A stretch of 64,000 nt of DNA from a virus. Position numbers and translations under genes: made by a program. The DNA is taken from positions 1 to 64,000 of the IMG/VR virus record IMGVR_UViG_3300030090_005798; one strand, written 5' to 3'. Positions within the stretch are counted from its first letter, which is position 1; every line of letters starts with the position of its first letter. The notes beneath the pieces were generated by a model. The model had not been told where the DNA came from. It worked only from the letters and a program-made list of their open reading frames with translations, and searched no databases. Shown piece by piece: positions 10,062-29,517 of the stretch.

Positions 10062-10250
10062 TTACTCTCCTTTATCTTTGCTCTTACCGATATTTAAAGC
10101 AGCCCAATCAATAAGTGCATAGATTTTAGCCCAAAAAGTTCCCTTTTTAGGAGTAGGGGTTGCTGCGGTAATGGCAGAGGCGAGGGCAACAGCAGAAGCT
10201 ACTACACCCCACCAAGGGTTATCCTGAATCAATTGAATGATTGTGTCCAT
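10062..10250 (-). CDS. Small membrane protein
   Basis: 62 aa, one hydrophobic helix then TPTPK; GTGTAA upstream. Confidence 0.65.
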   Translation of the reverse strand: MDTIIQLIQDNPWWGVVASAVALASAITAATPTPKKGTFWAKIYALIDWAALNIGKSKDKGE

Positions 10251-11557: not shown

Positions 11558-12178
11558 CTAGACAATTCTAATTCTGCTCCTGATTTTTGAAACGTGCCTT
11601 TTCTTTTCTAAAACAGAGCCGCCCTCCCTGCTTCCAGCACCGTTTGTGTTACCTTCAATAGTAACTACATAACCGCTTGAGTCTGCGTCTTTTACAGCTA
11701 ATCCAATATGAGAAAAAGTAAATACAACAATATCACCTGCTTTAATATCTTCGTTTGTAGGTTTGCGGAGTTCCACGCCTTTTGTGCTTTCTTGTTTAGC
11801 CCAGTTCTCAAAGTCCCAAGCTCCAGCGGTTCTCGGTCTTTTGAATGCTACATCCTCTCCTTCAATAGCTTCTCTAACTAACCAGCAAATAAAAGCAGCG
11901 CACCAAGGCCAACCTTTGTCTGCGTCTAACCATGTGGCCGCTTTGTATTCATCTACTCTTGGCCCACAATTACTGCCGTCAACTTCGGAGACTCCTATTT
12001 CTTCTCTCGCCAAGGAAACCATTTTCTCTGCTACACTCCCACCAGAGACAACAGTATCTTTGGTCGATAACTTAGCTAAAATAGCATTCCACGTTACAGG
12101 CCCATCAGCACCATCAGCAGAGACTCCAAGGAGTTTCTGCACAGCTTTTACTACTTCTTTTTTGCCTTTAAAATTCAT
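11558..12178 (-). CDS. Endolysin: peptidoglycan-binding domain + CHAP domain
   Basis: VQKLLGVSADGADGPVT (PG_binding_1-like); PWCAAF, SHIGL, TIEGNT (CHAP Cys/His); start at the TAATG overlap. Confidence 0.9.
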   Translation of the reverse strand: MNFKGKKEVVKAVQKLLGVSADGADGPVTWNAILAKLSTKDTVVSGGSVAEKMVSLAREEIGVSEVDGSNCGPRVDEYKAATWLDADKGWPWCAAFICWLVREAIEGEDVAFKRPRTAGAWDFENWAKQESTKGVELRKPTNEDIKAGDIVVFTFSHIGLAVKDADSSGYVVTIEGNTNGAGSREGGSVLEKKRHVSKIRSRIRIV

Positions 12179-12783
12179 TATGAACACCTTCTGCTAAAAC
12201 TAGCGCACACAGACATCACGATACATAGAACAACTGTTAGTATCATGAAGTTTTTGTAGTCAGTTATTTTTTCATTTAAAATCGCAGCTTGTTCCTCATT
12301 GTAATACATTTTTGTATCCATGATGTTGTTGATGGCTTCTATTGTGGGGTCAGTCATCTCATACATCGTGGGAACTGATGCTTTAATCAATTCAACATTG
12401 TTCGTATTCCCCCATTCAATTAATTGATTAACATAAAGATTTATTTTCTTTTCTTGTTCAAATACAAAATCTGCATACTCAACCTCTTTTGGGGTTATAT
12501 CCTTCTTATAACCTTCTAAATATTCATCCTTATATACCCTCTCCTCTTCTAAGGTCTCTACCATTTCTGCTGGAGTTATGACTCCATGAGAGGTTTTTAC
12601 GACCGAATCTACAATGATGACCCCATACCAATCAAAGCACATGCCAATCTCCATAATGGAAGACTCTGATTGTCGAGCATTCTCTTTTAGTGTGTTTTGA
12701 ATGTTTTCAGTAAGGAAAAGACCCTTGAAACCAAAAGCTAGACAAATAGCAGATAAACAATAAACAATAAATTTAGGTCTCAT
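12178..12783 (-). CDS. Two-TM protein with periplasmic four-helix-bundle chemoreceptor-like domain and no signalling tail
   Basis: TM-periplasmic-TM topology; DWYGVIIVD..K..G...Y..ITPKE...MYEMTDPTIEAINNIMD resembles 4HB_MCP_1. Confidence 0.6.
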   Translation of the reverse strand: MRPKFIVYCLSAICLAFGFKGLFLTENIQNTLKENARQSESSIMEIGMCFDWYGVIIVDSVVKTSHGVITPAEMVETLEEERVYKDEYLEGYKKDITPKEVEYADFVFEQEKKINLYVNQLIEWGNTNNVELIKASVPTMYEMTDPTIEAINNIMDTKMYYNEEQAAILNEKITDYKNFMILTVVLCIVMSVCASFSRRCS

Positions 12784-13097
12784 TTTTTAATAAAATTTTC
12801 TGGGTTCTTGGCGAATTTTTCACCTAGCCTTACTATACCACTAATAACCTCTGGACTTATTACACCAATAATACCGTAAGTGATTGCCTTAGTTAAGGAT
12901 GATACATCTGTTTGTTCTAATACAAACCAAGCTATGCCAGCAGCGAGGGCTGCTGTAATTACCCTTTTAAACTGTTGTTTAAGTGTTAATCCATTATTAC
13001 CTGATAAGAGCCTAGCAAACATCGCAGCAGCACCTACAAGCGGGACTAACCAGCCTCCATTGAGGAATTCTTTGATTAAAGACTTTTCAGGTTCCAT
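12780..13097 (-). CDS. Holin (LydA-like, 3 TM)
   Basis: 105 aa, three hydrophobic segments, basic C-terminus, first gene of the cassette ending in the endolysin. Confidence 0.7.
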   Translation of the reverse strand: MEPEKSLIKEFLNGGWLVPLVGAAAMFARLLSGNNGLTLKQQFKRVITAALAAGIAWFVLEQTDVSSLTKAITYGIIGVISPEVISGIVRLGEKFAKNPENFIKK

Positions 13098-13114
13098 GTA
13101 ATTAACTTCTACAC

Positions 13115-13145
13115 AAAAAAAGCCACCCGTGCAGGTGGCTTTTTT
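13115..13145. terminator. Bidirectional intrinsic terminator
   Basis: aaaaaaagccacc-cgtgca-ggtggctttttt downstream of the porin-like gene. Confidence 0.85.
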
Positions 13146-13170: not shown

Positions 13171-13842
13171 TTAGAAGTTGTATGACAATCCTGCGCCAAC
13201 AATCCACTCTTGATCTACTTCAAGAGAAGACCCGTCGAGGTCGTTATCGTTAAAGGAAACTTTTCCAACGATAGAAATATCCTCTGTCAAAACATAATTT
13301 GCTTTAACGCCAAGCTCAAGTGAATCATATTCTTCTGCAATATTTACAGTCACAAAAGGGCTTAAGGTAAGATTTTCGACAGGTGTCTTAAAGTCATATG
13401 AAGCTCCAAGCTCTACTCCGAACCAGTCGTTGTTGTCCTCATACCAAACACCAACAGAAAAATCTGCAATGTAAGTATAATCAGCAGTCAAAGATAGTTC
13501 TTCTCTGTCTCCAAAGATAGATTCGGTGTCTTTTAGAGCAGCAGTCAAGCCAATGTTTTGACCGAAAAGATCAACCCCAAGGCTGTAGCTAGCTCCAAAG
13601 TCCATCTCGCCACCGCCGTCAGTGTCGAAAAGTGATGCACTAAATGAAAGATCTCCCCCTCCCAGAGCGGTAGATAGAGCAAGAGAAGCTCCAATAGAGT
13701 CTTCCCTTGTTGCTAGACCTCTGTCAGTGCTAAAGTTTGAAATTGATGCCCCACCTTCAACGGACAAATCCGTTGCTACAGTGGTAGCAGAGGCTGCGCT
13801 AATAATTGAAGCGCCCAGTAGTGTAAGAATTAGTTTCTTCAT
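13171..13842 (-). CDS. Outer-membrane beta-barrel protein (TorF/TIGR02001-like)
   Basis: Signal peptide, SNFSTDRG, amphipathic beta strands, C-terminal GAGLSYNF BAM signal; TTGACC-17-TATATT promoter. Confidence 0.75.
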   Translation of the reverse strand: MKKLILTLLGASIISAASATTVATDLSVEGGASISNFSTDRGLATREDSIGASLALSTALGGGDLSFSASLFDTDGGGEMDFGASYSLGVDLFGQNIGLTAALKDTESIFGDREELSLTADYTYIADFSVGVWYEDNNDWFGVELGASYDFKTPVENLTLSPFVTVNIAEEYDSLELGVKANYVLTEDISIVGKVSFNDNDLDGSSLEVDQEWIVGAGLSYNF

Positions 13843-14140: not shown

Positions 14141-14410
14141 TTATTTGCCGCTAGAAAAGTAAAGTTGCCTCTCTAGCCTCCTGAATCTAGCGTCAGAATG
14201 CCAAATTTCATCATTATTAGGGGTATAAATACCCTTACTTGTTTCTATTGGAATCCCTTTTGTCAAACTCAGAGTAGAAGGCTGATAAATGTTTAAAGGA
14301 GTTGTCTTCACGGATGAGTTCGTCGCGCAAGAGATCAGCACGGTCGGCATCACCGCCATTAGCCCTAATGTCTTCAAGTTCTTGAATAATTCTTTTTCTT
14401 TCTTCTTCAT
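14141..14410 (-). CDS. Putative o-spanin lipoprotein (Rz1-like); true start probably internal
   Basis: Lipobox-like VLIS-C; overlaps 14235..14501 in another frame. Confidence 0.6.
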   Translation of the reverse strand: MKKKEKELFKNLKTLGLMAVMPTVLISCATNSSVKTTPLNIYQPSTLSLTKGIPIETSKGIYTPNNDEIWHSDARFRRLERQLYFSSGK

Positions 14411-14501
14411 GGTCTTGTTTTAATTGTAGATAGAAAGTCTTATTTTTTAAAGATAAAAATAACTCAATTGATTTTAAAACACTTTTAATTAAGGTAAGCA
14501 T
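14235..14501 (-). CDS. Putative i-spanin (Rz-like)
   Basis: Hydrophobic/amphipathic N-terminus then coiled coil; overlaps the lipoprotein gene. Confidence 0.55.
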   Translation of the reverse strand: MLTLIKSVLKSIELFLSLKNKTFYLQLKQDHEEERKRIIQELEDIRANGGDADRADLLRDELIREDNSFKHLSAFYSEFDKRDSNRNK

Positions 14502-28455: not shown

Positions 28456-29517
28456 TTAAGTCAATAGCTCCATGTCATGTTTAACCATTTTATTCACTAG
28501 CTGAATAAAACTTGTTTTTGGTTCCCAGCCAAGCTCTTTTCTTGCTCTAGCTGAGTCGCCCCAAAGTAAGTCAACTTCTGCTGGACGGTAAAACTTAGGA
28601 TCAACTTCCATCAATAAATCATCTGCGTGGTAGTATTTTAATTCTTTTCCATATCCTTCCCATCTGCAAATGCTTCTATGAAAACCAGCGAAGTTAAAAG
28701 CTTCTTCAACAAACTCTTTTATAGTGTGTGTTTCATCTGAAGACAAAACATAATCATCAGGTTTTTTCCTTCTGATATAGGTTAGGTTCTCTTCTTGATT
28801 GAGCATTTTCCAAACACCATCTACAAAATCTTCTGCGTCACTCCAATCTCTTTTAGAATCTACATTGCCTAATCTTAAAGGTTCAAAGTTTTCTTTTCGG
28901 GCAAACTCATCAGCAATACGAGCTACGTTTTGGGTAATCTTCCTAGTAACAAATTCTACACCTCTTCTAGTTCCTTCGTGATTAAATAACCATCCTTGGA
29001 CAGCATATAAGTTGTAAGAATCTCTGTATACCTTGACTAAGTGTCTTGCGGCACATTTAGAAGCTCCGTATGGGCTTCTAGGACGCAGCGGATGTTCTTC
29101 TGATTGAGGTTCTGTAATAACGTCCCCAAACTCCTCAGAGCTACCTGCATTGTAATATCTGCAATCTGGAACGTGTTTTCTTATAGCTTCTAGCTGATGA
29201 AGAACCGCCATACAATTAGTTTGCATGTGGTTAACTGGCATTTGCCAACTTGTGCCTACAAATGAATTAGCGGCAAAATTTATAAAGTAATCAGGCTTGT
29301 GCTCAAAGATGACTCTATCAATGTTTTCTGCATCAGTAACATCTAAATCAATTAAAAAGAATCTTGGGTTATCTAAGAGGTGTTCTATATTTTCATGATT
29401 TTTAACACTAAGTCTCCTTACACCGCCTATGATTGTATGCTCAGTGTTATTGATTAAGTAGTCCACCATGTGACTACCATCTTGACCTGTTACTCCAGTA
29501 ATAATAATTTTTTTCAT
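28456..29517 (-). CDS. gmd: GDP-mannose 4,6-dehydratase
   Basis: ITGVTGQDGS, PRSPYGASK, FNHE, FVTRKI, RDWS, RPAEV. Confidence 0.95.
   Translation of the reverse strand: MKKIIITGVTGQDGSHMVDYLINNTEHTIIGGVRRLSVKNHENIEHLLDNPRFFLIDLDVTDAENIDRVIFEHKPDYFINFAANSFVGTSWQMPVNHMQTNCMAVLHQLEAIRKHVPDCRYYNAGSSEEFGDVITEPQSEEHPLRPRSPYGASKCAARHLVKVYRDSYNLYAVQGWLFNHEGTRRGVEFVTRKITQNVARIADEFARKENFEPLRLGNVDSKRDWSDAEDFVDGVWKMLNQEENLTYIRRKKPDDYVLSSDETHTIKEFVEEAFNFAGFHRSICRWEGYGKELKYYHADDLLMEVDPKFYRPAEVDLLWGDSARARKELGWEPKTSFIQLVNKMVKHDMELLT

Follow-up and report, generated by a model that had tools for sequence, protein, structure and literature searches.

Why would a phage carry a stand-alone sensor domain of the chemoreceptor type between its holin and endolysin genes? 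The question is raised by three minus-strand genes in a 64,000-nucleotide (nt) stretch of viral DNA, corresponding to positions 1 to 64,000 of IMG/VR record IMGVR_UViG_3300030090_005798 and referred to here as the window. A previous sequence-only reading of this DNA had proposed that the middle gene encodes a sensor captured from the host, which could tie lysis to an external ligand. The middle protein is examined below with respect to its family and structure, its linkage to the holin in related phages and the role in lysis that these features suggest.

The Three-Gene Cassette

The first gene (12780-13097, minus strand) encodes a predicted holin of 105 amino acids (aa), so assigned from its open reading frame (ORF), position, topology and sub-threshold family matches. 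Its TGA stop codon is overlapped (ATGA) by the start codon of the middle gene (12178-12783, minus strand), whose 201-aa product is composed of a first transmembrane segment (TM1), a four-helix-bundle (4HB) sensor and a second transmembrane segment (TM2). The TAA of this gene is in turn overlapped (TAATG) by the ATG at 12178 of a CHAP endolysin gene (11558-12178, minus strand), for which the longest ORF call begins at a GTG, at 12187. The three genes, both overlaps and the TM-periplasmic-TM topology had been described in the sequence-only reading and were verified on the sequence and by hydropathy. The single GTGTAG motif that it placed upstream is present (13109-13114); with 14 copies on that strand of the 64 kb it is, however, about as frequent as expected by chance, and neither the hexamer nor an extended 10-mer was enriched there as a promoter motif.

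The Middle Protein: Topology, Fold and Family

Hydropathy and the AlphaFold2 (AF2) model place TM1 at about residues 5-25 (12709..12771, minus strand), continuous with helix 1 of the bundle, and TM2 at about residues 179-196 (12196..12249, minus strand). The intervening periplasmic domain, of the 4HB_MCP type, spans about residues 26-178 (~150 aa; 12250..12708, minus strand) according to the AF2 model and to alignments, and the protein closes with the basic tail SRRCS, the last codons and the stop codon occupying 12178-12195 (minus strand). The basic residues found at both ends of the protein fit an N-in/C-in topology (positive-inside rule), and its predicted location is the inner membrane. 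The early stop after TM2 was correctly noticed before, its distance being five residues instead of about six. This early end is common to all of the ~130 relatives, and a word-index search with the family profile found no longer fused forms, which is weak evidence. No Pfam match to HAMP, MCPsignal or a kinase domain was found in the middle protein, and since it ends five residues past TM2, it is not a chemoreceptor.

Taken alone, the middle protein matched no Pfam or PHROG family, and the sensor families PF12729 and PF02203 gave no match to it even at an expect value (E) of 10. The link to chemoreceptors came from an exhaustive phmmer search of 1.84 billion representatives, which returned about 20 full-length relatives (195-232 aa, 20-30% identity) together with four long proteins aligned over the first ~200 residues (whole-library E 2.8e-5 to 3e-4). 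These four are chemoreceptors, carrying PF12729 and PF02203 in the matched region followed by MCPsignal, with a significant HAMP match in three of them; they include proteins of Erwinia typographi, Chitinimonas lacunae and Oxalicibacterium faecigallinarum and share 22-25% identity with the phage protein. Profile-profile alignment (hhalign) of the phage family with the chemoreceptor N-termini reached 99.3% probability over 183 columns, and it still reached 98.7% (E 2e-16, 119 columns) with both transmembrane segments removed, the reversed control scoring 0.1%. Moreover, the nearest named clusters in the language-model (ESM) atlas carry PF12729. A sequence profile search of the PDB yielded designed helical repeat proteins only and no receptor.

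The structural data point in the same direction. The AF2 model built with the family alignment has a predicted local distance difference test (pLDDT) score of 90 and consists of four long helices (residues 3-65, 71-93, 98-126 and 137-199), the first and the last of which run into the transmembrane segments. When the model was compared with 48,161 chains, the six best matches were all periplasmic 4HB sensors (PcaY, MCP2201, Vc1313, Adeh_2942, HK9 and PilJ), with Z scores of 14.6-13.4 and root-mean-square deviations of 2.3-2.7 over 121-154 residues; these Z scores barely exceed the chance level for helical bundles and were therefore weighed together with the sequence evidence. The top Foldseek matches, which are weak (E about 0.1), were Tar, a sensor-kinase domain, NarQ and Tsr. 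The resemblance to 4HB_MCP_1 domains noted in the sequence-only reading thus falls short of the Pfam cut-off and is borne out by Foldseek and hhalign. The motifs on which it was based are real as well: the head carries the conserved FDWYG..VD..VK..HG and MY..TDP, and hhalign shows that such motifs are common to true chemoreceptor N-termini.

In summary, phmmer, hhalign, AF2 and the structural matches agree on a ligand-binding fold and family of the 4HB_MCP type devoid of HAMP, kinase or MCP output. On these comparisons the relationship of the middle protein to 4HB_MCP_1/TarH sensor modules is genuine, though distant, and the protein is assigned to the 4HB_MCP clan as a divergent member and not to PF12729 as curated, because all members of its family score below the Pfam cut-off. 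The idea of a sensor recently captured from the host fared less well, as the nearest chemoreceptors are distant in sequence and belong to unrelated, non-marine bacteria. The ESM atlas also lists bacterial clusters made up entirely of PF12729 proteins ~200-217 aa long, and therefore stand-alone 4HB modules may exist in cellular genomes or prophages.

The Predicted Holin and the Endolysin

The product of the upstream gene is predicted to be a LydA-type holin. It has hydrophobic segments at about residues 14-32, 45-61 and 71-91 and a basic C-terminal tail, and its family presents an invariant AWFxLEQTD loop. The window protein matches the LydA family PF16083 (Phage_holin_3_3) at E 0.04, below the Pfam cut-off, and 15 of 16 members of its family match PF16083 as well (best E 1e-5, 26 bits against a cut-off of 28.4); one database relative bears a precomputed PF16083 label. 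The AF2 model of the holin is all-helical and, with a pLDDT of 56, uninformative.

The endolysin is identified by a CHAP peptidase domain above the Pfam cut-off (E 2.4e-7) and by matches to endolysin PHROGs (E 2e-15), with a short peptidoglycan-binding-like segment at the N-terminus. Hydropathy revealed no signal or signal-arrest-release (SAR) segment, which means that the enzyme needs a holin.

Conservation of the Holin-Partner Pair

The linkage of the middle protein, hereafter the partner, to the holin was followed in 229 IMG/VR loci collected with partner or holin sequences as seeds. A holin homolog lies directly upstream in 88 of the 89 partner-seeded loci, the exception having just 49 nt of upstream DNA, and this linkage persists where the partner is only 23-32% identical to that of the window and the holin 55-63%. 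Counted over all non-redundant loci, the partner gene overlaps the holin stop codon by 4 nt in 116 cases and by 1 nt in 13. Locus searches seeded singly with three distant members found nothing.

The endolysin gene is adjacent in the close clade only; elsewhere the pair is followed by a transfer RNA (tRNA) cluster or by structural genes. In one divergent clade (L002 3671-5706, L008 and L010), five to eight tRNA genes come right after the holin-partner pair and an RNA ligase gene lies upstream. The synteny with lysis genes implied by a signal-gated cassette therefore holds for the holin (88 of the 88 loci with usable upstream DNA) and fails for the endolysin, absent from this position in divergent clades. 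Given that holin and partner stay together while their surroundings change, the conserved unit is that pair and not the three-gene cassette. An antiholin is expected to be encoded with its holin and to be placed where it can meet it, and the partner shows both features, with the overlap in nearly all loci and the inner-membrane prediction.

A Variable Periplasmic Head

The fate of the sensor domain was surveyed in 111 non-redundant holin-seeded loci with enough downstream DNA, where the proportions of the different forms reflect the loci returned by the searches and not population frequencies. The full form, of 180-235 aa, is present in 67 of them. In another 32 the holin is followed by a short two-TM form of 50-93 aa without bundle, whose periplasmic part of about 3-40 residues is often rich in Cys, bringing the loci with a partner or a short form to 99; nothing or an unrelated ORF is found in the remaining 12. 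In alignments, the short forms correspond to both transmembrane segments and the tail of the full-length protein, and some, that of L216 among them, occur in phages closely related to that of the window. These three states indicate that the conserved core is the transmembrane hairpin and that the sensor is a swappable head. On a holin tree of only 105 columns, which is poorly resolved, the three states need at least 10 changes, and well-supported branches force two to three per state.

One group of short forms (L189, L204-L215 and L217-L230) is particularly homogeneous, with 79-81 aa and a periplasmic loop of ~30 residues containing three to four Cys at conserved spacing. With this spacing, the loop might form a small head held together by disulfide bonds and standing in for the four-helix bundle.

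In 53 close relatives, purifying selection acts on each of the three genes (median dN/dS 0.04-0.07, with dS saturated). The value for the partner, about 0.07, marks it as a real gene, and its dN is double the values of the holin and the lysin.

Possible Function of the Partner

The features described above can be accommodated by viewing the partner as an antiholin-like regulator of the LydA-type holin, formed by a two-helix hairpin core with a 4HB head, a reading to which we give about an even chance. The constant hairpin, the coupling to the holin and the apparent dispensability of the protein are what suggest a regulator-type holin partner with a 4HB input head; relatives that lack the head or the whole gene form the pattern that would suit a dispensable regulator. 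In this model, the hairpin would be made together with the holin through translational coupling, and its periplasmic head would trace back to the sensor module found in chemoreceptors and sensor kinases. Probably dimeric as in 4HB receptors, the hairpin would bind to the helices of the holin within the inner membrane. If the head changed, through ligand binding or the state of the envelope, the change would then pass down helices 1 and 4 into TM1 and TM2 and alter how firmly the holin is held back or released. We infer the contact with the holin, an effect on lysis in one direction or the other (delay or advance) and the binding of a signal by the head, and the gating of lysis by an external ligand would follow as a further inference. 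The partner is probably an optional tuner of the time at which the host cell bursts.

A more ambitious version of the regulator model, which we consider rather doubtful, envisages a lysis clock with interchangeable periplasmic heads mounted on a constant, holin-gripping hairpin, its timing being set by a periplasmic small molecule or by the envelope state. If this were true, the head of the clock would be a chemoreceptor-derived ligand sensor in the present phage and a small Cys-rich loop, or nothing, elsewhere, and the transmembrane signalling of 4HB receptors would be operating with a holin, not a kinase, as its output.

Several observations weigh against a sensor-regulator of the holin. The head has been lost or replaced several times, which counts against an indispensable, finely fitted sensor and means that lysis does not depend on any signal that it may read. 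The transmembrane segments of the partner evolve faster than its periplasmic domain (dN 0.15-0.22 vs 0.12 in close relatives), which is not what a tightly fitted intramembrane interface predicts. The identity of the holin relies on sub-threshold matches to LydA and to holin PHROGs, plus position and topology. As to the head, no member of the family reaches the PF12729 cut-off of 27 bits (three of 23 members match, with a best E of 0.005), and the positions in common with chemoreceptors (Y53, K63, E100 and the turn motifs) may serve the structure and not ligand binding. A complex prediction for holin and partner, both given as alignments, scored 0.27; this value is under the mark, was obtained without controls and is not counted either way.

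The best surviving alternative, although an unlikely one, is that the hairpin is a second holin or co-holin of the class II type, which co-assembles with the three-TM protein and whose head acts as a steric or dimerising lock instead of reading a signal. The short forms, with their 50-93 aa, two transmembrane segments and short basic tail, do look like class II holins or pinholins, several cooperating holins are found in phages such as P1 (PMC9025707), and the coupling of the gene to that of the three-TM protein makes joint production likely. However, the partner is missing from about a tenth of the holin-seeded loci, whereas the three-TM protein is present throughout and shows far stronger conservation; the fast-evolving transmembrane segments of the partner and its lack of a match to any holin family in Pfam or PHROGs also speak against a holin.

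It is less probable still that the partner is a late envelope protein, involved for example in superinfection exclusion or in the sensing of superinfecting phages, that is merely co-transcribed with the lysis genes and does not act on the holin. Its inner-membrane and periplasmic location would suit this role, as would its evolution at a faster rate than its neighbours (with the twofold dN mentioned above), the repeated swapping of the head, as in an arms race, and the presence of an adjoining outer-membrane protein (OMP) gene that is also hypervariable. Yet an overlap of 4 nt or 1 nt with the holin gene in nearly all loci, in very different settings, argues for a joint function beyond shared timing.

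The absence of an output domain also brings to mind a dominant-negative decoy that heterodimerises with the 4HB chemoreceptors or sensor kinases of the host and silences them during infection. True homology to receptor sensor modules, including the transmembrane flanks, and the strong dimerisation tendency of 4HB modules (PMC9769921) are compatible with such a decoy, but we regard it as very unlikely: in relatives the slot is filled by bundle-less hairpins, with which the sensor head of a host receptor could not pair, the receptors closest in sequence, at 22-25% identity, come from unrelated non-marine bacteria, and the strict coupling to the holin would be left unexplained. Finally, a spanin or spanin part linking the inner and outer membranes, as might be imagined from the lysis-cassette position, the long helical periplasmic part and the OMP and ADP-heptose genes that suggest a host with an outer membrane, is contradicted by the topology and hardly deserves credence, because both ends of the protein lie at the inner membrane/cytoplasm with a C-terminal second TM in place of the free periplasmic C-terminus of i-spanins, there is no lipobox or conserved N-terminal Cys as in u-spanins (C9 and C14, preceded by IVY and SAI, are not conserved), the gene is optional in relatives, and a separate pair of lipoprotein and coiled-coil genes lies 1 kb upstream.

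Possible Implications for Lysis Timing

Full-text searching found no literature linking 4HB or chemoreceptor sensor domains to holins or to phage lysis. Holin regulators as such are already known, and the novelty suggested by the sequences resides in the type of sensor and in the modular head. The lysis inhibition exerted by T4 RI and ICP1 ArrA is a response to superinfection in which the sensing is done by parts that cannot be recognised as sensor domains (PMC8385771, PMC11413866, PMC7182436).

The timing of lysis sets the phage burst size and, at sea, also the release of host carbon. If the regulator model were correct, abundant marine phages could read the chemistry outside the cytoplasm, and the holin-partner pair would offer a minimal and genetically accessible model for the passage of a 4HB signal through two membrane helices to a partner protein, for which the natural head-swap and head-deletion variants would be ready-made controls. 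Should the head be a structural lock only, the protein would still represent a new class of holin partner, widespread in marine metagenomes.

Genomic Context

The window comes from an IMG/VR virus record of 77.8 kb with an estimated completeness of 56%. It has a G+C content of ~35%, and its genes include a DnaE-type polymerase, a Clp/Lon-like ATPase, a ribonucleotide reductase and many glycosyltransferases. The phage is uncultured and marine: the sequencing runs listed as containing this DNA, none of them an RNA run, are marine metagenomes from about nine studies, and a tblastn search of partner and holin against 50,697 phage records produced no match, the DnaE and Clp/Lon-like genes having distant matches only among phage records. 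A gmd-like gene (28456-29517, minus strand) shows 72% identity to genes on contigs of an uncultured Flavobacteriaceae metagenome-assembled genome (MAG), from which a host in this family is weakly hinted; other gmd matches are scattered across unrelated MAGs, possibly mis-binned phage contigs, and the Flavobacteriaceae MAGs matched by gmd contain no member of the partner family.

Immediately upstream of the cassette, a strong, GC-rich 12-bp hairpin with an A run on one side and a T run on the other (13116..13145), detected by sequence scan and terminator-like on both strands, separates the holin gene from the OMP gene. The product of the latter (13171-13842, minus strand) is OMP-like, of the beta-barrel kind with a signal peptide, with weak matches to MipA and to the cyanophage Phage_OMP family. 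Among relatives with holin and lysin 81-98% identical, its identity ranges from 36% to 98%, which characterises it as a hypervariable envelope gene.

The pair of small ORFs found 1 kb upstream (14141-14410 and 14235-14501, minus strand) overlap but are read in different frames. A lipoprotein signal (..VLISC) is carried by one of them; its companion, with an amphipathic N-terminus and a charged helical remainder, overlaps the end of an HldD-like epimerase gene. In L070 both are found again, upstream of the OMP-holin unit, and their arrangement suggests that they may form an overlapped two-component spanin; a PHROG scan gave nothing significant, no significant family match was obtained, and the second ORF has no clear transmembrane segment. 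A clearer case is provided by L020 (4781-5318, minus strand), in which a lipoprotein gene (..SKGC) is followed by an overlapping gene for a protein with a transmembrane segment and a coiled coil; from these features, and from a weak match of the lipoprotein to an Rz-like PHROG (E 0.04), it looks like an o-/i-spanin pair. Lastly, a gene located 1.3 kb downstream of the endolysin (10062-10250, minus strand) encodes a 62-aa protein with one hydrophobic segment that matches phrog_9685 (function not assigned; E 1.5e-4) and could be a further lysis-related membrane protein.

Comparison with Known Systems

The partner has the same TM1 - four antiparallel helices - TM2 organisation as the modules of Tar, Tsr, PcaY_PP, MCP2201, Vc1313 and NarQ/NarX. 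It is related to 4HB_MCP_1/TarH modules with a profile-profile probability of 99% and has sequence motifs in common with them where helices 1 and 4 lie farthest from the membrane. It differs from 4HB_MCP_1/TarH receptors in being phage-encoded and coupled to a holin, in having no HAMP, MCPsignal or kinase domain and in scoring below the PF12729 cut-off. Sensors with 4HB domains signal by small displacements of helix 4 and TM2 (PMC9769921), and a periplasmic change could plausibly reach a partner within the membrane in this way.

Among antiholins, T4 RI is a periplasmic protein acting on the holin T (PMC8385771, PMC11413866), and the gene for ICP1 ArrA neighbours that of the holin TeaA (gp137-139), ArrA homologs having been tabulated for transmembrane domains (PMC7182436). 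By analogy, the partner would resemble both as a small non-essential phage protein with a periplasmic part, thought to tune the holin in response to an extracytoplasmic cue, although no relation in sequence or fold to them was found (no Pfam or PHROG match). Furthermore, RI works via the large periplasmic domain of T, whereas the holin described here exposes a 10-residue loop only, and therefore any contact with the partner would take place mainly within the membrane. The LydA-LydB system of phage P1 is similar in that a LydA-like holin (on sub-threshold matches) has its partner encoded directly downstream, in a two-gene unit separable from the endolysin. However, the antiholin LydB has no predicted transmembrane domain (PMC9025707), unlike the partner, which matched no Pfam or PHROGs family, and the likeness is one of gene position only.

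A cellular counterpart is found in GlnX of Corynebacterium glutamicum, a membrane protein of the 4HB type that has not been described as having an output domain and for which signalling to partners via membrane helices was proposed (PMC9769921). GlnX consists of two tandem bundles on four transmembrane segments and is proposed to work with the kinase PknG and the binding protein GlnH (PMC9769921). It is a cellular protein whose partner is not a holin, but it shares with the phage protein the condition of a membrane-anchored 4HB sensor with no output domain on record.

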